Part shown: one piece after another, positions 9,199-31,524 of the stretch | Position numbering within the stretch: the stretch's first letter is position 1 | Layout: the number at the start of each line of letters is the position of its first letter | NCBI GenBank assembly: GCA_040776945.1 | Contig: JAXGZN010000002.1 | Span: 480,001-544,000, forward strand | Source of the DNA: Methanomassiliicoccaceae archaeon | GTDB taxonomy: Archaea; Thermoplasmatota; Thermoplasmata; Methanomassiliicoccales; Methanomassiliicoccaceae | Length of the DNA stretch: 64,000 bases | Reading direction: 5' to 3' | The notes under the pieces: model-generated | Told to the model about the DNA's origin: nothing | The model's input: the letters and a program-made list of their open reading frames with translations, nothing else | Databases searched by the model: none | Made by a program: the position numbers and the translations under genes

Positions 9199-9340
9199 CG
9201 GATACGAGGTTCGTAGGCACGAGCAAAGGGGCCTAAACCCCGTTAACTGGCATCTAGGGCCGGCCCTTTTCGATGCAACATTGTAACAATCGTTTTAGAA
9301 AAAACTTTTGTCAGGCTTGAAATTTTAACCGGCGTTAAAC

Positions 9341-9375
9341 ATGGATGGTCCATCCATCCATAAAAGATTTTAATA
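9341..9375 (+). promoter_or_regulatory. Palindromic operator ATGGATGG-N5-CCATCCAT plus BRE/TATA of the corrinoid gene
   Basis: Inverted repeat 9341-9361 followed by AAAAGATTTTAATA. Confidence 0.65.
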
Positions 9376-9430: not shown

Positions 9431-10069
9431 ATGAGCAACGAGATACTTGACAAGTTAGCTGATGTCGTAGTGAAGGGGAAGATCAAGGAAGCCAAGCCCC
9501 TTGCAGAGCAGGCCTTGGCCGCTGGGATCGACCCCAAGGTAATCATCTTCGACAGCTTGAGCAAGGCTATGGGAGTTGTAGGCCAGAAGTACGAGAGCAA
9601 GCAGTACTTCCTGCCCCAGGTCCTTCTGTCCGCTCAGACCATGTACCAGGCCCTGGATGTCACCCTGCCCAAGCTGAAGGTTGACGCCAACGCTATTCCT
9701 GGAAAGGTCGTCATCGCTGTTGTTGAGGGCGATGTGCATGATATCGGAAAGAACATCGTGAAGGCCATGCTGACCGGTGCCGGCCTGACATTGTTCGACA
9801 TGGGCCGTGACGTCCCCGTCAAGAACCTGGTCGAGAAGGCCAAGTCCGAGGGCGCCCAGATCCTTGCCACCTCCACCCTGATGACCCCCACCCTGGCGGG
9901 CATGAAGGAGATCGAGAGGATCCTGAAGGAAGAGAACCTCAAGGGCAAGGTCAAGACCGTCATCGGCGGTGGTGCGACCTCCAAGGAGTTCTCCAACCAG
10001 ATCGGGGCCAACGGCTGGGCTTACGACGCTGTCGAGGCCGTGGCTGTTGTTCAGGGCCTGCTGAAGTAA
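9431..10069 (+). CDS. Methyltransferase cognate corrinoid protein (MtaC/MtbC/MttC family)
   Basis: EGDVHDIGKNIV B12-binding motif, four-helix cap, STLMT, GGG; GAGGAGG SD. Confidence 0.95.
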   Translation: MSNEILDKLADVVVKGKIKEAKPLAEQALAAGIDPKVIIFDSLSKAMGVVGQKYESKQYFLPQVLLSAQTMYQALDVTLPKLKVDANAIPGKVVIAVVEGDVHDIGKNIVKAMLTGAGLTLFDMGRDVPVKNLVEKAKSEGAQILATSTLMTPTLAGMKEIERILKEENLKGKVKTVIGGGATSKEFSNQIGANGWAYDAVEAVAVVQGLLK

Positions 10070-15326: not shown

Positions 15327-15776
15327 ATGCTAGAATGGGAGATGGACGAGTTCGAAAAGCATAACGCCGTTCAGAAGGCCCGTAGGCTGTCCGAAAGGTC
15401 CTTTGACAAGATAGACCAACTCCTCACAGACTCATTGGCCCTGAGGATCCTGGCCATGAGCATAGGCCGTGAACTTACCGTTCAGGACATCAAGGACAAC
15501 CTGGACGTTTCCATCGTCACCTGCTATGGCATCGTGAAGCAGCTACGCGAGGTCGGACTATTGATCGAGGCGGGCAAATCCAGGACATCGGCGCACGGGC
15601 TCTCCACATTATACACCTCCACTCTAAGGACAAGCATGATCCGCTTGACCGGTGGCCACCTCGAGATATTCTACGTGTTCAACGACGGCACCGTTCGCTC
15701 CCGCATAGAACAGGTGTTCGATGAGGACAAGCTGGGAAGGTTCGGGAAGAGGCATTCGGTCAAGAGACCGGAATGA
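15327..15776 (+). CDS. Winged-helix (ArsR-like) transcriptional regulator
   Basis: LRILAM...LTVQDI...VSIVTCYGIVKQLREVGLL pattern. Confidence 0.65.
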   Translation: MLEWEMDEFEKHNAVQKARRLSERSFDKIDQLLTDSLALRILAMSIGRELTVQDIKDNLDVSIVTCYGIVKQLREVGLLIEAGKSRTSAHGLSTLYTSTLRTSMIRLTGGHLEIFYVFNDGTVRSRIEQVFDEDKLGRFGKRHSVKRPE

Positions 15777-17498: not shown

Positions 17499-17656
17499 GT
17501 AGGGGCAAGAGCAGAACGGCGCTCCCGAAAGGGGGTGTCCGCAAACATTTCTTCTTTTTCGACAACGATTAATACATATTGAGGCATTATCTGCAACGAA
17601 CCTCACAAACAACCCGCTATATGGATAGTATTTGGAACAATGTTGCAGGTTTGCTC

Positions 17657-18124
17657 ATGGACGATACCGACCTGAAGATCCTAAAGATGCTCCGAGACAA
17701 CTCCAGAGAGAGCCTAGGCAAGATATCCGAGGTCCTGGGGATATCGAAGGCCACGGTCTCTCGCCGGCTGGCGAGGATCGAGCAGGAAGGATATATCACG
17801 GGCTACACAACAATAACCAACCCTGGAAAATTGGGGGTGATGAAAGGGATAATATCCCTCGAGATAATGGGAACGGCGGTCAATGCTGTCATCGAGCAAC
17901 TTCGGTCGTTCAAAGAGATCGAGTCTGTGATGAGGGTGTTCGGTGATCATGGGCTTATATGCATTGCCTATTCCAGAAGCGTGGACTCACTCTATGAGCT
18001 CATCCAAAACCAAATCCTAAACATCCCAAATGTCCACAACGTGGAGGTGGACATCGTCATTGACCGGATGATAATCAATCCTAACGCCGAGCTTGATATG
18101 TCCAAGGCCCCTGGGATAAGATGA
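17657..18124 (+). CDS. Lrp/AsnC family transcriptional regulator
   Basis: MDDTDLKILKML..NSR HTH, EGYITGYT, C-terminal RAM domain. Confidence 0.9.
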   Translation: MDDTDLKILKMLRDNSRESLGKISEVLGISKATVSRRLARIEQEGYITGYTTITNPGKLGVMKGIISLEIMGTAVNAVIEQLRSFKEIESVMRVFGDHGLICIAYSRSVDSLYELIQNQILNIPNVHNVEVDIVIDRMIINPNAELDMSKAPGIR

Positions 18125-20912: not shown

Positions 20913-20980
20913 AAAATTAACTCATGTTAAGAAAATTGCAGGAGGTCTGGCCGAACCTCAAAAATCACGATTGTTTACGT

Positions 20981-21014
20981 TGGTTGGATTATCCATCCAG
21001 CACCATGTTTATAT
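20981..21014 (+). promoter_or_regulatory. mcr promoter: TGGTTGG-N5-CCATCCA palindrome plus TATA (TTTATAT)
   Basis: Near-palindrome 20981-20999, TATA at 21008. Confidence 0.65.
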
Positions 21015-21157
21015 CTCTCTCTCTACTTACAGGGCAATGACAGGGGATTTGGTTTTCATCAGAAGGGAGGCACTCTCGGACGATGAAGGCCGTTCAACTT
21101 CTTACCCCGGCCGGGGGGACTCTGCCGGGCGAGGAAAAAATGATTGGAGGTAGAAAT

Positions 21158-22477
21158 TTGGCGAAATACAAGGACAAAATAGACTTGTATGACGACAGGG
21201 GTAAGCTTATTGAGAAGGATGTGCCCCTTGAAGCGATCAGCCCTCTGAACAACAACGCAATTAAGCGGATCGCATCCTTGGCCAAGAGGACCATCGCCGT
21301 GGACATGTCTGGACTTGAGAGGAGCCTCAAGACCGGGCGCGTCGGCGGCGGGTACATCAAGGGCAAGGAGATAGACGCTGCCGTTGTGGCCAATGCGGAT
21401 AAGTTGGCAAAGAGGGTCAAGGACATCCTGAAGGTCGACAAGGACGATGACACTGATGTCAAGGTCATCATGGACGGGAAGAGAATGATCGTCATGGTCC
21501 CGACCAACCGCGTCGACGCTGGTGTAGAGTACACCACTGGATTCACCGCAGCTGCCGCTGCGCTTACCCAGGCCGTCATCGATGAGTTCAACGTCGACAT
21601 GTTCCATGCGAACATGGTAAAGGGTGCTGTTTGGGGCAGATATCCCCAAAGCTTGAACTTCCTTGGATCCAACCTGAAGTCCATCCTGGAGGTTCCGCAG
21701 GTCAACGAGGGAGCCGGATATGCTCTCAGAAACATCATGGCAAACCATCTGGTCGCCTTGTCTGGTAAGAACTCGGTCAACGCTGCCGCGCTGTCCTCTA
21801 TCTTTGAGCAGACGGCGATGTTCGAGATGGGCGACGCCATCGGACCCTTCGAGAGGTACCACCTGCTGGGCCTGGCCTACCAAGGACTGAACGCGAACAA
21901 CATCGTCCTTGACCTGGTCAAGGAGAACGGCAAGACCGGAACCGTCGGTACCGTTGTCGAGTCCATCGTGGGCCGCGCCATTGAGGACAAGGTCATCAAG
22001 GTCAAGGAGAAGCTGCCCTCTGGATACAAGGTGTACACCACCAACGACTTCCCGCTGTGGAACGCCTACGCCGCCGCTGGTATGCTTGCGGCCAACATGG
22101 TGAACATCGGTGCTGCCAGGGCTTCCCAGGCCGTGCCTGCGACGACCCTGTACTACAACGACCTTATCGAGCACGAGACCGGCCTGCCTGGAGTCGACTT
22201 CGGCCGCGCCATGGGTGTCTGCGTCGGTATGTCCTTCTTCAGCCACTCTATCTACGGCGGTGGCGGACCTGGACTGTTCCACGGCAACCACGTCGTGACC
22301 AAGCACTCCAAGGGATTCGTCATCCCGTGCATCGCTGCGGCCTGTTCCCTGGATGCAGGGACTCAGTACTTCTCACCCGAGAGCACCTCTTCCCTTGTGA
22401 GGGATGTGTTCGGTGAAATACCTGAGTTCAAGGCTCCGTTGAAGGCGATTGGCAAGGAGGCCAAGAAACTGAAGTAA
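21158..22477 (+). CDS. mcrB: Methyl-coenzyme M reductase beta subunit
   Basis: [27 protein letters not shown]; TTG start with GGAGGT SD. Confidence 0.98.
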
Positions 22478-22497
22478 GAGGTGTGTGGTTAAGCTTG

Positions 22498-22920
22498 ATG
22501 ACAAGTACTAATGCCCCTGAGGCTGTCCCGCTGCCTGAGATCCTGATCTTTCCAAACAGGCTCCTCAAGGCCGAGACCACCGAGAAGCTCCTTAACAGGA
22601 TCTACGAGGTTCCCCATGTGAGGCAGGTCAACATCGCTGGCGAAGCTCTACCGGCGGTGCTGAGCTCCGGCCCCAACAAGGGACTGCCCAACGAACACCC
22701 TGAACGCAGGGTGATAACAGTGAAAGGCGAGCAGGTCGAACTTCGCCTGCTGGTAGGAAGAGTGTTCGTCGAGATCGATGACATCGACCATGTCCAGCGA
22801 GCGCTCGAGGAAATCGATGAGATATGCATCGAGATCCTCCCGTTCGGGTTCAACCTGGAAGTGGGCAGGTACTCGAAATACAAGCCGACCGTCACCGATT
22901 ACAAGAAATGCAAGAGGTAA
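22498..22920 (+). CDS. mcrD: MCR operon protein D
   Basis: [29 protein letters not shown]; lies between mcrB and mcrG. Confidence 0.95.
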
Positions 22921-22925
22921 TAATT

Positions 22926-23699
22926 ATGGCATACCAAGCTCAGTACTATCCTGGCAACAGCCAGATCGCCAAGAACAGGCGCCGGTACATGGACCCCTCC
23001 GAAAAGCTGAAGAAGCTCAGGGACGTGGCCATGGACGACGTCGTAAGGATTCTGGGCCACAGGGCTCCCGGAGAAGACTACAAGAGCATCCACCCCCCAC
23101 TGGAGGAGGGCAACGAGCCGGATGACTACGTCCGCAAGTTGGTCACCCCCATCGAGGGCGCCAAGAAGGGCGACAGGATCAGGTACGTTCAGTTTACCGA
23201 TTCGATCTACTTCGCCCCCATGGTCCCCTATCTGAGGGCCTGGATGTACATGACCAGGATGAGAGGCTTCGACACCGGAACCCTTTCTGGAAGACAGATC
23301 ATTGAGATGAGGGAGAGGGACCTTGAGAAGGCATCCAAGGAACTCATCGACAATGAGACCTTCGACCCTGCCAAGACCGGTATCAGGGGTGCGACCGTGC
23401 ACGGGCACGCTTGCAGGCTGGACGAGAACGGGCTGATGTTCGACGCCTGGCAGAGATACCGCTGGAACGCTAAGAAGGGCGAGGTCGAGTATGTTAAGGA
23501 CCAGGTCGCTCTTCCGCTGGACAAGCCCATCTCCGTGGGCAAGCCCCTGCCGGACGCTGAACTCAAAAAGATGACCACCATCTTCAGGGTAGATGGAGTT
23601 GACATGATTGACGACCCCGAGGTCATGGCCATGAACCTGAGGATACACAGGCTGAGGACCCTTTGCGGATTCCAGGCCTTCGCCCTTAAGGGGGAGTAA
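22926..23699 (+). CDS. mcrG: Methyl-coenzyme M reductase gamma subunit
   Basis: [40 protein letters not shown]. Confidence 0.98.
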
Positions 23700-23703
23700 A
23701 ACT

Positions 23704-25368
23704 ATGGCAAAAGAAAAGGACAAGTTGTTCCTGGATGCGATGAAGAAGAAGTTCAAGGAGGCCCCTACCGCGGTCAACACCAACTACTATACCTTTGGTG
23801 GCTGGAAGCAGTCCAAGAGGAAGAGGGAGTGGGTTGAGCAGGCCAACAAGATCGCCAAGGCGCGCGGCATACCGATGATGAACCAGGACATCGGTGTACC
23901 TCTGGGCCAGCGTGTGCTTATGCCTTATCAGCTTTCGCACACCGACATATACGCTGAGGCGGACGACCTGCACTTCATGAACAACGCTGCCATGCAGCAG
24001 TGCTGGGACGATATACGCAGGACCGTCATCTCCGGTATGGACACCGCGCACGCCGTCATCGAGAAGAGGCTGGGCAAGGAGGTCACTCCCGAGACCATCA
24101 ACTTCTATCTCGAGACCGTGAACCACGCGATGCCCGGCGGAGCCGTCGTGCAGGAGCACATGGCCGAGGTCAGCCCGGGTCTTACCGCGGACTGCTACGT
24201 GAAGGTCTTCTCCGGTGACGACGAGCTCCTCGACCAGATCGACAAGAGGTTCGTCATCGACATCAACAAGGAGTTCCCCAAGGACCAGGCGAAGCAGCTT
24301 AAGGAGGCCATCGGAAAGTCCCTTTGGCAGAAGGTCGCTTGCCCGACCCTCGTCGGCCGCGTTTGCGACGGCGGTACCATGTCCCGGTGGAGCGCCATGC
24401 AGATCTCGATGTCCTTCATCAGCGCCTACAGACTGGCCGCTGGTGAGGCCGCCATCGCTGACTTCGCGTTCGCCGCCAAGCACGCTTCCGTCGTAGAGAT
24501 GGGAACCATGATGCCCGCTAGGCGCGCAAGGGGCCCCAACGAGCCCGGTGGAATTCCCTTCGGGTTCCTGGCCGACATGTCCCAGTCTTTCCGTGTAAAG
24601 CCTGACGACCCCGCCAGGGCTGCTCTGGAGGTCGTTGCACTGGGCGCTGTCGTGAACGACCAGATCTATCTGGGCTCGTACATGTCCGGCGGAGTCGGCT
24701 TCACCCAGTACGCCACCGCGGCCTACACCGACGACATCCTGGAGGACTACACCTACTGGGCCGTCGACCACATCAAGTCCAAGTATGGCGGGCTGGTCAA
24801 GAGCAAGCCGTCCATGGACCTGATGGAGAAGCTCGGCACGGAGGTCAACACCTACGCTCTCGAGATGTATGAGAAGTACCCGGCCGCTATGGAGGCCCAC
24901 TTCGGTGGCTCCCAGCGTGCGACCGTCGCAGCCGCCGCCACTGGTATCGCTTGCGCGATGGCCACCGGCAACGCCGACTTCGGTGTCAACGGCTGGTACC
25001 TCTCCATGCTCCAGCACAAGGAAAGATGGGGACGCCTCGGGTTCTACGGGTTCGACCTGCAGGACCAGTGCGGTGCCGCCAACTCTCTGTCCTACAGGAG
25101 CGACGAGGGTCTGCCCTTCGAGCTAAGGGGTCCGAACTACCCGAACTACGCCATGAACGTCGGTCACCTGTCCGGCTATGGCGGCATCGCTTGCGCCGCT
25201 CACGTGGCCCGCGGCGACGCCTTCGCCTGCAGCCCGCTGATCAAGGTCGCGTTCGCCGACAAGAACCTGCCGTTCGACTTCGCCAACATCACGAAGGAGT
25301 TCGGCCGTGGCGCTCTCAGGGAGTTCATGCCCGCTGGCGAAAGGTCCCTGATCATCCCCGCCCAGTGA
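23704..25368 (+). CDS. mcrA: Methyl-coenzyme M reductase alpha subunit
   Basis: [61 protein letters not shown]. Confidence 0.99.
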
Positions 25369-25372
25369 TCTC

Positions 25373-25651
25373 ATGATCGTAGGTGACATCGTCAAGTACC
25401 GCAACACCGGAACTGTGGGCAAAGTAGAGGACATCATGGAGGAGGGAAAGGTGACCTGGGTTCTCCTGGACACCTCCAAGCTCTACTATGACTCCTCTAC
25501 CCTTGACCCAGCATCGGCCGATGAGTACGGCGGTGCCGCCGATCGAGAGAAGGACCAGAGGGAGCAGATCGAGGACATCGAACGGCTCCGCCAACAAATG
25601 GCGGAGATAGCCGAAGAGATGTCCAAGATATCTCCTTCCGGTGCGGGTTAG
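25373..25651 (+). CDS. DUF2098 family protein (MCR-associated)
   Basis: VGDIVKYRNTGTVGKV, C-terminal GAG; directly after mcrA. Confidence 0.8.
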   Translation: MIVGDIVKYRNTGTVGKVEDIMEEGKVTWVLLDTSKLYYDSSTLDPASADEYGGAADREKDQREQIEDIERLRQQMAEIAEEMSKISPSGAG

Positions 25652-26043
25652 GACCTTCGGTCAACGACCAAACCCCTTCCTTTCACCTTTTTATGTCCTT
25701 TGGATGGGCGCAGCCATCGACGCAAACGCCCTAGTAATAGGAAAAAATCGAAAATCTGCAAATCCAAGCGATCGGACCTATCTCCTATAGATCGGACCGC
25801 TCCTTGTTCAGGTAGTTAGATCGTTTCTTCCAAACCATCCTGGCTTGGTCACATGTTCCAGGCACCAGCCCGATCCTGAGCATAACCGCGGGTCAGAACC
25901 CTACGGGATCGTATATGCGGTCTAAGGGCGGCTAAAAAATATCGGGCAATCCAGGGCCATTTGGGATGCCCTCCTTCGTTCGAAAATCCTCCGTTCAGGA
26001 ACATATATTCGACCGAACGGCCTGGTGGGGACCTGCCTTTAGA

Positions 26044-27410: not shown

Positions 27411-28385
27411 TCAGATGTTCTGCTCCTTTCGGGCACGTGCGACGACCTCGAACATGCCCCCCTTCGTGATATCGACTATGCCGAACACCGCCACCGCCTC
27501 GTTATTCCTGATGATGGGGACCACGACCACCGGGACCCCTCGATAAGGGCCGTAAGGAGAAATCTTCCTTACCGCCGCGCTCCGCTTGAGCGCTTCCTCA
27601 AGCACTGGCCCTGTGAAATCGGTATCGACGATCTCACCATCCTCGCATCGGACCCCGCGATGGTTCTTGCTCCGCATAGTGACCGGCAGACGGCCCACTA
27701 GCTCATGCACCGCTAGAGCAAGGCACCGGAGGTCCTGTGCTTCGGTGTCCGCGCTTATAAGGCTGTTAGGGGTACAATCCCTCCAGCAAGGCCGAGGAGA
27801 ATCTCCCAGCGCCAAGGCGGCGGTGACCGCTCCCTTTTCTGCTATATCGTAAGAACTTGCGGTGCCGATGATGACCACATCGTTCTCTTCCAGTGTGAAC
27901 GCCGACCTAATGGGCGCCAACAACGATTGGTCAGGGTCCGAATAGTCCCCTGGGAACAGAAGCTTACCGCCGTTGACCACCAAGGTCGTGGCTCCCATGG
28001 CGCCCACCCGAACGGCCTCGTCCCTCTGCTCGTAACCTGTCCCGATGCGGTCGGCCATGCCCTTAACGTGGACCGCACAGTCCTGATCGGAGATCGTGAG
28101 GCCATCGATCCTCACGGGGCTTACCATTATCCCTGAGCTTCTGAAGTTCTTGACCCCTCTTTCGGTGAGCACCGCGCCTAGATTCGTGTTCTCAACAGAG
28201 CCTTCGCGTATCATCTTGTCAAGTATTGTCCTGGTGCTGCCTTCTCCGATCCCTAAAAGATGGGAAAGGGTCTTTCGTCCGATAGGTCCTCTACTATTAA
28301 TGACAGAGTAGGTCTTCCAAACATGGAACAGTGTGAACTTGGGATTCGGCCCATCACCTGAGTAAGCTTGGAACTTCAAGACCAT
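27411..28385 (-). CDS. HTH (DUF4443-like)-DUF2111 fusion, putative transcriptional regulator
   Basis: GPIGRKTLS..LGIGEGSTRT HTH, QRDEAV..GA.GATT, C-terminal RLPVTMRS..GVRCEDG..GPVLEE..GPYRGVPV; alternative start 28403. Confidence 0.8.
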   Translation of the reverse strand: MVLKFQAYSGDGPNPKFTLFHVWKTYSVINSRGPIGRKTLSHLLGIGEGSTRTILDKMIREGSVENTNLGAVLTERGVKNFRSSGIMVSPVRIDGLTISDQDCAVHVKGMADRIGTGYEQRDEAVRVGAMGATTLVVNGGKLLFPGDYSDPDQSLLAPIRSAFTLEENDVVIIGTASSYDIAEKGAVTAALALGDSPRPCWRDCTPNSLISADTEAQDLRCLALAVHELVGRLPVTMRSKNHRGVRCEDGEIVDTDFTGPVLEEALKRSAAVRKISPYGPYRGVPVVVVPIIRNNEAVAVFGIVDITKGGMFEVVARARKEQNI

Positions 28386-28391
28386 GCTTGC

Positions 28392-28420
28392 TGGATGGAG
28401 CATCCATCCTAAATATGTTT
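28392..28420 (-). promoter_or_regulatory. GGATGG-N5-CCATCC palindrome directly downstream of a TATA-like element of the HTH-DUF2111 gene
   Basis: Minus strand reads AAACATATTTAGGATGGATGCTCCATCCAGCAAGCATG. Confidence 0.6.
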
Positions 28421-28609
28421 CTAGGTCGGGCAGAGAGCACTACCCAGATGAAATGAACGTCGAAATGTGGGATCGGCAGACCTGCGGCCTGCCAATCTAG
28501 GAAATGGGGCATAAGGGCGAAAACTAATAAAGGATAGTTACGCTAGACCGTAAACACCATCATCGGCCGAGGAAGGCTTTATAGTGTTAAGAGGGGTTGC
28601 TTGTTCAAT

Positions 28610-30836: not shown

Positions 30837-31406
30837 TTACTTTACTAGGTCGAAGCCCACAAGGTGCGTCCAGCGCTTGGGTCCGGGGAAGCCCATGACC
30901 TCCCGTATGAAGCTGTCGGCCATGGTGGAAACGCTTCCCGCGGTCACTCTGGTGACGCCTTCGATCCCATCGAGATATTCGAAGCCGACCTCGTCGATCA
31001 AGAAGTAGGGTTCGCCGGAGATCTCTATGTCAGGATGAAGGATGAAATCCTCGGACAGGAACTTCGTGTCCGGGTTCTCCTCCAAGATCCTCGCCCTCTG
31101 TTCCGGAGTGACATATTCACCAAGCACCTGCCCCTTCTGGTCCATCATGTAGAGCAATCCGCTATTGTTGACCAGCAGGTGAACATCGCCGACGATCACC
31201 AACGAGACCTCTCGCCCCAGGGCCTCCCAGACGCCTCTGTTCACGAACGGCATCAATCCTCCGCAGGCCCCGTTCTTCTCGGCCTGGATCTCCAATTTGG
31301 TGACCTCCTCTTTAAGGGCAGGTCCCAGGAATCTCATATCAAGGACGCCTGGTATTTCCCTTATCCGGCCCTCTACCGCAGCCAGTACGGCCTCCCGATC
31401 CATCAT
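30837..31406 (-). CDS. Uncharacterised protein, paralog of 26044..26601
   Basis: Coding-like ORF with GGGAG SD; shared blocks with 26044..26601. Confidence 0.8.
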   Translation of the reverse strand: MMDREAVLAAVEGRIREIPGVLDMRFLGPALKEEVTKLEIQAEKNGACGGLMPFVNRGVWEALGREVSLVIVGDVHLLVNNSGLLYMMDQKGQVLGEYVTPEQRARILEENPDTKFLSEDFILHPDIEISGEPYFLIDEVGFEYLDGIEGVTRVTAGSVSTMADSFIREVMGFPGPKRWTHLVGFDLVK

Positions 31407-31524
31407 AGCTCCCCTTGGGCAGGATTAGGTCATCCGGGCCTTAATGATTTTCATTATTGGATATAACATCCTGCCAGTCGGGGATAAGGATATCTACCCC
31501 AATTTGCTTTATCAATGGGACCAG

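Follow-up and report, generated by a model that had tools for sequence, protein, structure and literature searches.

Which protein reads the palindrome that stands in front of the methyl-coenzyme M reductase (MCR) genes in an archaeon of the order Methanomassiliicoccales, and to what effect? The question is raised by a stretch of 64,000 nucleotides (nt), the whole of which is referred to as the window (G000:C2:480001-544000, in a genome of 2.17 Mb with 59.6% GC), where three copies of one palindrome were found, all of them in promoters: that of the mcr operon, that of a corrinoid-protein gene and that of a gene coding for a winged helix-turn-helix (wHTH) regulator, protein P0122. In the letter codes used here G stands for a genome, C for a contig, L for a locus, and f and g for a family and a genus within the Methanomassiliicoccales; G000 is the source genome, and the close homologues of the window proteins carry the source names Methanomassiliicoccus or Methanomassiliicoccales. 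We consider it moderately probable that P0122 is an autorepressed factor which acts from an activator-type position on the mcr genes and on corrinoid methyl-transfer genes, by means of a sensor domain specific to MCR-bearing archaea.

Analysis of the three copies revealed that the 17-mer GGATGGAGCATCCATCC at 28393-28409, of the form GGATGG-N5-CCATCC, lies in the promoter of the regulator gene itself, that the 17-mer GGATGGTCCATCCATCC at 9343-9359 lies 72 nt upstream of the corrinoid-protein gene corr1, and that a copy with one mismatch, GGTTGGATTATCCATCC, occupies positions 20982-20998, 85 nt upstream of mcrB. A preliminary description of this DNA had reported the copy at 28393-28409 as the third one, 15/17 identical to the corrinoid site, and this was confirmed. 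With at most one mismatch allowed, the window holds three matches vs a mean of 0.52 in 100 shuffled sequences, three matches being reached in 2 of the 100 shuffles, and the whole 2.17 Mb genome holds 24 matches vs four for the reversed control. The sites and the genes that they precede are as follows.

9342-9360: predicted corr1 operator, TGGATGGTCCATCCATCCA; 8 nt separate the 17-mer inside it (9343-9359) from TTTTAATA
9368-9375, plus strand: TATA-like box of corr1, TTTTAATA, assigned from its position and conservation
9431-10069, plus strand: corrinoid-protein gene corr1 (PF02310 and PF02607; TIGR02370 at 191.8 bits, under the cut-off of 215.3)
20981-20999: predicted mcrB operator, TGGTTGGATTATCCATCCA, a 7-5-7 or 9-1-9 palindrome ending 8 nt before TTTATAT
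21008-21014, plus strand: TATA box of the mcr operon, TTTATAT, conserved in all six promoters compared
21083-25651, plus strand: putative target operon of mcrB, mcrD, mcrG, mcrA and the DUF2098 gene (Pfam)
25373-25651: DUF2098 gene, directly after mcrA
27411-28385, minus strand: wHTH-DUF4443-DUF2111 regulator gene (P0122, 324 amino acids [aa]; stop codon at 27411-27413), from its open reading frame (ORF) and Pfam
28393-28409: predicted operator of the regulator's own promoter, minus-strand reading GGA-TGGAT-GCTCC-ATCCA, between the TATA-like box and the ATG
28410-28418, minus strand: putative TATA-like element, ACATATTTA, abutting the operator, its centre about 28 nt from the ATG at 28385

The longest ORF of the regulator gene opens at an ATG at 28403, within the palindrome, and a second ATG at 28385 gives a protein of 324 aa. 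Since homologues of P0122 measure 320-325 aa and the succession of palindrome, 4-7 nt and ATG is conserved, the ATG at 28385 was taken as the likely start. With this start the minus-strand order is TATA-like box (28418-28410), palindrome (28409-28393), 7 nt and ATG, and the earlier placement of the palindrome between a TATA-like element and the gene start holds; the arrangement implies a regulator mRNA that would be leaderless or nearly so. Thirty orthologous loci across the Methanomassiliicoccales were fetched, of which one lies at a contig edge and 29 were readable. The layout TATA, GGA[TGGAT-N5-ATCCA]TCC, 4-7 nt, ATG was found in 26/29, the remaining three carrying a 6-5-6 form or a form with one mismatch, and an AT-rich box adjoins the palindrome in these promoters. 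In family f7, where the regulator protein is only about 40% identical to P0122, TGGAT-N9-ATCCA occupies the equivalent place in 10/10 own promoters, one of them with a half-site that has one mismatch. The predicted operator has a repressor-type position here, and its conservation within the own core promoter among orthologues is as expected of an autoregulated archaeal transcription factor.

At three other promoters the predicted sites have an activator-type position. A gap of 8-10 nt lies between the end of the palindrome and the TATA box downstream of it at mcrB and at both corrinoid operons, namely corr1 and corr2, the latter a second corrinoid-protein/methyltransferase operon. The product of corr1 is a putative methyltransferase-cognate corrinoid protein, and the gene is a putative target. 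Order-wide, the palindrome was present in 23/30 mcrB promoters; the mcrB site is best described by the register GG[AT]TGG-N5-CCA[AT]CC, which is perfect in 22/30 loci vs 18/30 for the TGGAT-N5-ATCCA core, and 17 of these 22 perfect loci have a T[TA]ATA[TA] hexamer at a constant distance of 10 nt after the 17-mer. RNA contigs from the metatranscriptomes of four studies span the mcr operon, starting at 21048-21058 and ending at 25583-25683; by these extents, a weak hint given that the ends of a transcript are not fixed by contigs, the mcr transcript would begin downstream of both palindrome and TATA box, and the DUF2098 gene would belong to the operon. The same contigs start within a leader motif of mcrB, (G)CAAGGGGA..CGATTTTCA(T)C at 21040-21060, which is conserved order-wide.

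The core common to all sites is TGGAT-N5-ATCCA, of which the genome carries 14 perfect copies, vs 0-3 copies with other spacers (8 for spacer 0) and 0-2 with scrambled half-sites; the half-sites without spacer, TGGATATCCA, with these 8 copies genome-wide, are the commonest spacing other than N5. In 61/61 Methanomassiliicoccales genomes the core occurs 4-26 times per genome, vs 0-2 for the control. None of the 14 copies lies inside a called gene, which here means outside any called ORF, the ORF caller being crude enough to have overlooked even the regulator gene. Several registers coexist, the half-site being a repeat of GGAT, and it could be argued that the palindromes are not protein-binding sites at all, having arisen by chance or as by-products of this 4-nt repeat. 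Two of the 14 core matches, G000:C1:453845 and G000:C2:747793, do lie in islands of 39-40% GC within the 60% GC genome, where they overlap uncalled ORFs and are probably chance matches in foreign DNA. The enrichment of the core in G000 and throughout the order, and a position relative to the TATA box that is fixed across families, leave the chance explanation hardly credible.

Presence of the palindrome was compared with presence of the regulator gene in 11 genomes of the genus, seven with the gene and four without it (G021, G029, G054 and G061); three of the latter are 99% complete and were checked with PF09884, and G061 is 67% complete. The sequence GGWTGG-N5-CCAWCC occurred 6, 6, 8, 5, 3, 4 and 5 times in the genomes with the gene vs 0, 1 and 2 times in the three complete genomes without it and once in the incomplete one. 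The palindrome of the mcrB promoter was found in 4/4 genomes with the gene that were compared, and in three more at loci fetched around the palindrome itself, vs 0/3 genomes without the gene, where the left arm is gone and the TATA box and leader are kept. At the corr1 promoter it was found in 7/7 genomes with the gene vs 0/4 without it, the adjoining ATAAAAGA...TATA stretch being kept. The corr2 operon with its site occurs in 7/7 genomes having the gene, and the operon was not found in the other four. Co-occurrence of motif and gene had been put forward earlier as a check on the role of the regulator; within the genus the two do co-occur, in a pattern shared with the following gene.

17657-18124: Lrp/AsnC-type regulator gene, in the window near ycaO-tfuA-mcr

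This Lrp, a conserved ycaO-tfuA-mcr neighbour, could itself bind the palindromes, the wHTH-DUF2111 gene being merely one of its targets. Its presence in the genus equals that of the regulator gene (7/11 genomes; not found in G021, G029, G054 and G061), so that for the mcrB site the two proteins are not told apart by co-occurrence. Beyond the genus, Lrp lies 2-4 kb from mcrB in families f1-f6 and was found in only 2/14 f7 genomes, and the mcrB palindrome parallels it, being present in f1-f6 and absent in 10/10 f7 loci; the f7 genome G042 holds both Lrp and a corr1 orthologue with a site. A search of five Lrp-less f7 genomes for a corr1 orthologue at E up to 1e-60 found none. Against a role of Lrp as the binder, f7 genomes where it was not found keep the palindrome in the wHTH-DUF2111 promoter, sites with the same TGGAT core at cobamide genes (below) persist in genomes without it, and Lrp-family sites are usually AT-rich. 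Moreover, the promoter of the Lrp gene is devoid of the palindrome and holds a different element, AACAATGTTGCA, at 17636-17647. P0122 was preferred because of the own-promoter site kept in f7, this Lrp promoter, and a recognition helix like that of a short paralog of P0122 (below); we regard Lrp as quite unlikely to be the reader of the palindromes. The wHTH at 15327 was rejected as a palindrome binder, since it was found in only 2/11 congeners.

A second conserved promoter element was observed at both target promoters, namely ACGATTGTTTA (20967-20977) just upstream of the mcrB palindrome and GCAACATTGTAACAATCG (9275-9292) upstream of the corr1 palindrome. In the lineage that has neither regulator, these second elements have been lost along with the palindrome. 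The element AACAATGTTGCA of the Lrp promoter matches the reverse complement of TGCAACATTGTA, part of the element upstream of the corr1 palindrome, at 11/12 positions, and the second element (ACGATTGTTTA / GCAACATTGT, and AACAATGTTGCA in the Lrp leader) may be an operator of Lrp.

Three domains were identified in P0122, all on the minus strand, and the DUF2111 domain that the preliminary description had assigned to the protein is among them.

28131-28331, minus strand: winged helix-turn-helix, residues 19-85 (PF22167, 33.0 bits; cut-off 30.2)
27807-28091, minus strand: DUF4443, residues 99-193 (PF14544, 94.3 bits; cut-off 27)
27465-27710, minus strand: DUF2111, residues 226-307 (PF09884, 112.1 bits; cut-off 27; profile positions 1-83 of 83)

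The recognition helix of the wHTH reads GEGSTRTILD. A Pfam scan of P0122 at E up to 0.1 gave four families only, with no PF09339 (HTH_IclR), no PF01614 and no SorC domain. Of 149 Methanomassiliicoccales genomes with a completeness of 90% or more, 144 carry DUF2111, in open frames of about 320-350 residues with few exceptions; the draft genomes G094 and G108 gave no DUF2111 match. The wHTH-DUF4443-DUF2111 fusion is confined to this order and near-universal in it. The AlphaFold2 model of the full-length protein has a mean predicted local distance difference test score (pLDDT) of 91.5, and DUF2111 modelled alone a pLDDT of 90.7. The 50 rows that VIA-align listed for the DUF2111 model were all PAS, GAF, Cache or similar alpha/beta sensor-like domains at Z 5.9-8.0, values under 8 lying in the grey zone stated for the tool. 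The top match was the PAS domain of CitA (8bgb; Z 8.0, 102 residues aligned, root-mean-square deviation [rmsd] 3.7), and those at Z 6-8 include the CitA PAS domain, the C-terminal domain of SpoVT, IclR effector domains and GAF domains. Foldseek gave GAF and Cache domains at E about 1e-3 and none at E <= 0.001. The modelled DUF2111 fold looks PAS/GAF/Cache-like. Alignment of 24 DUF2111 sequences revealed conservation of R, E, Y, D and G, and of no Cys or His; the R, E, Y and D, without Cys or His, may hint at ligand binding.

The two N-terminal domains match a structure of PH0730 from Pyrococcus horikoshii (2P8T), a structural-genomics protein of unknown function. Residues 18-198 of P0122 were aligned with it at E 9.3e-12 (Foldseek E 2.3e-10, template-modelling score TMt 0.75, 28% identity). 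With PF22167 and PF14544 both above their cut-offs, P0122 belongs with the PH0730-like wHTH-DUF4443 proteins, the DUF4443 domain being common to P0122, PH0730 and the short paralog; the short paralog has the same architecture as PH0730, which, unlike P0122, is without DUF2111. Literature searches on PH0730, DUF4443, COG4029, PF09884 and PF14544 returned list entries only, with no operator, regulon or ligand for PH0730 among them. The IclR regulators join a wHTH to a PAS/GAF-like effector domain, as P0122 may do, and their effector domains match the DUF2111 model at VIA-align Z 6.0-7.4 (3r4k, 1mkm, 5tjj, 9e6a and 5h1a); with the full-length model of P0122, IclR proteins appear in Foldseek at E about 1e-4 and TM about 0.2. 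They differ in that P0122 has no HTH_IclR match and carries an extra DUF4443 between wHTH and DUF2111, and membership of P0122 in the IclR family was rejected (NCBIfam NF007339 at 13.8 bits vs a cut-off of 299; neither PF09339 nor PF01614). The N-terminal DNA-binding domain of CggR/SorC proteins resembles the wHTH (7oyk; TMt 0.65, rmsd 1.0 over 64 columns), and SorC/CggR membership was likewise rejected: the wHTH scores 23.4 bits with PF21715, for which the cut-off is 30, and a SorC sugar-phosphate-binding domain is lacking.

From the positions of the sites and the architecture of the protein we infer that P0122 binds the palindromes, with which sign it acts and that it responds to a signal. 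It would be a one-component transcription factor in which a dimer of the winged helix reads GGAT-repeat palindromes (core TGGAT-N5-ATCCA, here GGATGG-N5-CCATCC). At its own promoter, binding between the TATA box and the leaderless start would block recruitment of RNA polymerase and result in autorepression. At mcrB and the two corrinoid/methyltransferase operons, binding 8-10 nt upstream of the TATA box, beside the BRE, would recruit TFB and TBP and result in activation. The activity would be set by the C-terminal DUF2111, possibly also by DUF4443. Literature searches gave, among the matches listed, no description of a dedicated transcription factor of the mcr operon in Methanomassiliicoccales, nor of a function of DUF2111.

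SurR, TrmBL1 and Tgr are dual regulators of archaea whose effect is set by the position of the site relative to BRE/TATA. P0122 would resemble them by its palindromic operator, which lies upstream of BRE/TATA where activation is presumed and downstream of TATA where repression is presumed, and it differs from them in protein family and in motif. An alternative is that P0122 is the binder and represses everywhere, including at mcrB and the corrinoid operons, by occluding the BRE until a methanogenesis signal lifts it. In favour of this, the palindrome stops so close to the TATA box (8-10 nt) that it abuts the BRE, and the mcr core promoter is unchanged in the genomes that have neither site nor factor, so that expression needs no activation. 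The site is nevertheless fixed upstream of BRE/TATA at three promoters vs downstream of TATA at the own promoter and at an alcohol dehydrogenase (ADH)-like gene, a contrast typical of archaeal regulators with a dual effect (SurR and TrmBL1, for example); repression at all promoters appears unlikely. In Methanosarcina, control of methyltransferase and corrinoid genes is exerted by the Msr regulators and MreA. They are comparable to P0122 as dedicated control of methyl-transfer genes in a methylotrophic methanogen, and no domain shared with them was found among the four families that P0122 matched; they are not known to act on mcr through a palindrome.

The sites with the TGGAT core were of two flavours. 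The flavour TGGATGG..CCATCCA(TCC) was found at the own promoter, mcrB, the two corrinoid operons and the ADH-like gene. The flavour AGT-TGGAT-(AT-rich)-ATCCA-ACT lies between TATA and start at six cobamide/tetrapyrrole operons (btuF/btuC-like; cobT-like; sirC-like with hemA; cbiT-like with a tetrapyrrole methylase; cobA; cbiMNQ), which form a candidate cobamide/tetrapyrrole regulon. The loci of the cobamide flavour and the gene of the short paralog, which is made up of wHTH and DUF4443 only, are given below.

G000:C2:142089: cobamide-flavour locus L254
G000:C2:152804: cobamide-flavour locus L019
G000:C2:437198: cobamide-flavour locus L255
G000:C2:450863: cobamide-flavour locus L022
G000:C2:458387: cobamide-flavour locus L020
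G000:C2:890390: cobamide-flavour locus L021
G000:C1:346384: cobamide-flavour locus L017
G000:C2:571504-572055: gene of the short paralog

The short paralog has the recognition helix GEGSMRTIVD vs GEGSTRTILD in P0122 and is 39% identical to P0122 over residues 12-193. Such nearly identical helices would fit two paralogs reading two flavours of one core, and the cobamide flavour is probably bound by another factor than P0122, for which the short paralog is the candidate. It may further be proposed that the short paralog binds all TGGAT-N5-ATCCA sites, including those of the mcr, corrinoid and long-gene promoters, the long protein having another role or acting only as a partner. This would agree with the resemblance of the helices, with its presence in nearly all Methanomassiliicoccales genomes, with the persistence without the long gene of same-core sites at 6-7 cobamide and tetrapyrrole operons, and with families f2 and f4, where the short gene is closely followed by a site and by B12-uptake-like genes. 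However, in G021, G029 and G054, which keep the short paralog, the palindrome is gone from the mcrB and corr1 promoters and hardly any GGWTGG-N5-CCAWCC sites are left, and in G000 no site with up to two mismatches was found near the short gene, whose neighbours are uninformative; we consider a single reader of this kind very unlikely. In f2 and f4 (L235-L238; G001, G014, G003 and G019) the short gene follows a SAM (S-adenosylmethionine) synthetase gene, and in G001 and G003 (2/4 loci) the downstream cobamide-type site precedes genes for PQQ (pyrroloquinoline quinone)-like beta-propeller/PKD and DUF4430 proteins, possibly a B12-scavenging pair.

Several observations weigh against the role proposed for P0122. 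The cobamide-flavour sites persist in congeners without the regulator gene and without Lrp, which have 11-16 core sites each, and P0122 is therefore not the sole reader of the motif family. The four genomes without the gene share promoter features and look like one lineage, so that the co-occurrence amounts to about one evolutionary event; since this lineage is also without Lrp and the corr2 operon, the comparison is confounded; and since the mcr core promoter is retained in the site-less genomes, the factor can do no more than modulate expression. Genus g2 has the regulator protein and Lrp, yet the mcrB site is degenerate in 4/4 loci; family f7 has the regulator protein, yet its mcrB promoters (10/10) show only a GG(A/T)TGG-like half-site beside the TATA box. 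The spacing of the half-sites varies (N5 at the own promoter, N9 at its f7 counterpart, N1/N9 registers at mcrB), which a rigid dimer would not tolerate unless the GGAT repeats permit sliding. The DUF2111 fold matches with Z under 8 are middling, though their class is consistent. Finally, the metatranscriptome contigs over the regulator gene are pieces only, at depth 3-4, and could be DNA carry-over; none among 29 of the 60 RNA pieces lies within 28353-28565, which shows neither expression nor a transcript end.

The autorepressed activator of the preliminary description is thus retained in part. Conservation of the own site, the sites upstream of TATA, the co-occurrence with the gene and the PAS/GAF-like model speak for it; P0122 as the only reader of the motif does not stand, and Lrp shows the same pattern of presence. 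Added to that description are the wider TGGAT-N5-ATCCA family shared with a candidate cobamide regulon, the Lrp neighbour as a live rival, and a link between DUF2111 and MCR activation.

The link concerns the genomic context of DUF2111. In the window the regulator gene is divergent from atwA, which is followed by mmp7, an unnamed 200-aa ORF, mmp3, mmp17, mmp6, mmp15, mmp5 and mcrC, a gene order (Pfam) that agrees with the earlier statement that it lies inside the MCR cluster, divergent from atwA-mcrC. Outside the Methanomassiliicoccales, DUF2111 stands alone, as a protein of 110-140 aa that has no DNA-binding part and shares 38-60% identity with residues 205-324 of P0122; these COG4029 proteins share the domain with P0122, which differs by its fusion to a regulator divergent from the mmp cluster. 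Eighty loci with stand-alone DUF2111 were retrieved from a query alignment of five rows. In 41/80 the gene lies between mmp17 and mmp6, in a cluster of mmp3, mmp17, DUF2111, mmp6, mmp15 and mmp5; these 41 (L088-L139) comprise 38 loci of Methanobacteriaceae and L088-L090, from a Methanofastidiosia metagenome-assembled genome (MAG), the unclassified archaeal MAG NM3 and a MAG labelled Thermococci. A wHTH-DUF4443 gene never adjoins DUF2111 in the stand-alone loci examined. DUF2111 has, in these other lineages, an independent link to the MCR activation genes, one of gene neighbourhood only. The passages of PMC12176620 on the MCR activation complex list McrC, Mmp7, Mmp17, Mmp3, A2 and DUF2098; DUF2111 is not among the subunits listed in these passages, which were found by terms other than DUF2111. 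The entry for the DUF2111 protein MMP0337 (COG4029) in a 2007 survey (PMC1852104) gives it as methanogen-specific; DUF2111 was found only in archaea of the methane cycle. A complex prediction for Mmp17, Mmp6 and stand-alone DUF2111 of Methanobacterium scored 0.00, which speaks neither for nor against binding. As a tentative extension, in which we place low confidence, DUF2111 could be the missing sensor through which practically every archaeon with MCR follows a signal specific to methanogenesis, be it F430, coenzyme M (CoM), coenzyme B (CoB), the heterodisulfide or the state of the Mmp activation machinery, next to which it is encoded in Methanobacteriaceae and Methanofastidiosia; in the Methanomassiliicoccales it would have been fused into a switch for mcr, corrinoid genes and itself, with the DUF2111-less sister paralog running a cobamide regulon through the same half-site.

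The finding supplies a defined protein, defined operators at fixed positions and a natural knock-out lineage. If correct, it would offer a way to learn what DUF2111 responds to across all methanogens and methane-oxidising archaea, and would point to a means by which the methyl-reducing methanogens of guts and digesters adjust their methane output.

Further observations concern other loci and genes. Two MtaA-like methyltransferases, RamA and ycaO-tfuA are also encoded in the window. The 200-aa ORF between mmp7 and mmp3 (30864-31466) has no Pfam or NCBIfam match and is overlapped by a 189-aa ORF on the opposite strand. A search of the literature on archaeal cobalamin regulons gave nothing relevant among the matches listed. 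TGGAT-N9-ATCCA occurs 4-10 times in five f7 genomes vs 0-2 for the control, many of the matches containing an N5 site; of four such sites inspected, one belongs to a corr1 orthologue, one to an aminotransferase and the others have no clear target. Two Methanoperedens loci and one Methanotrichaceae locus carry stand-alone DUF2111 followed by a GNAT acetyltransferase gene. At L017 two sites, G000:C1:346384 and 346458, lie 74 bp apart between a gene for an unknown 345-aa protein and a Zn-ADH-like gene, which is followed by a trpD-like phosphoribosyltransferase gene. One of them is of the cobamide flavour. The second, GGTTGGATGG-A-CCATCCAACC, forms a perfect 10-1-10 palindrome and is flanked by a TATA-like box and the start of the ADH gene.

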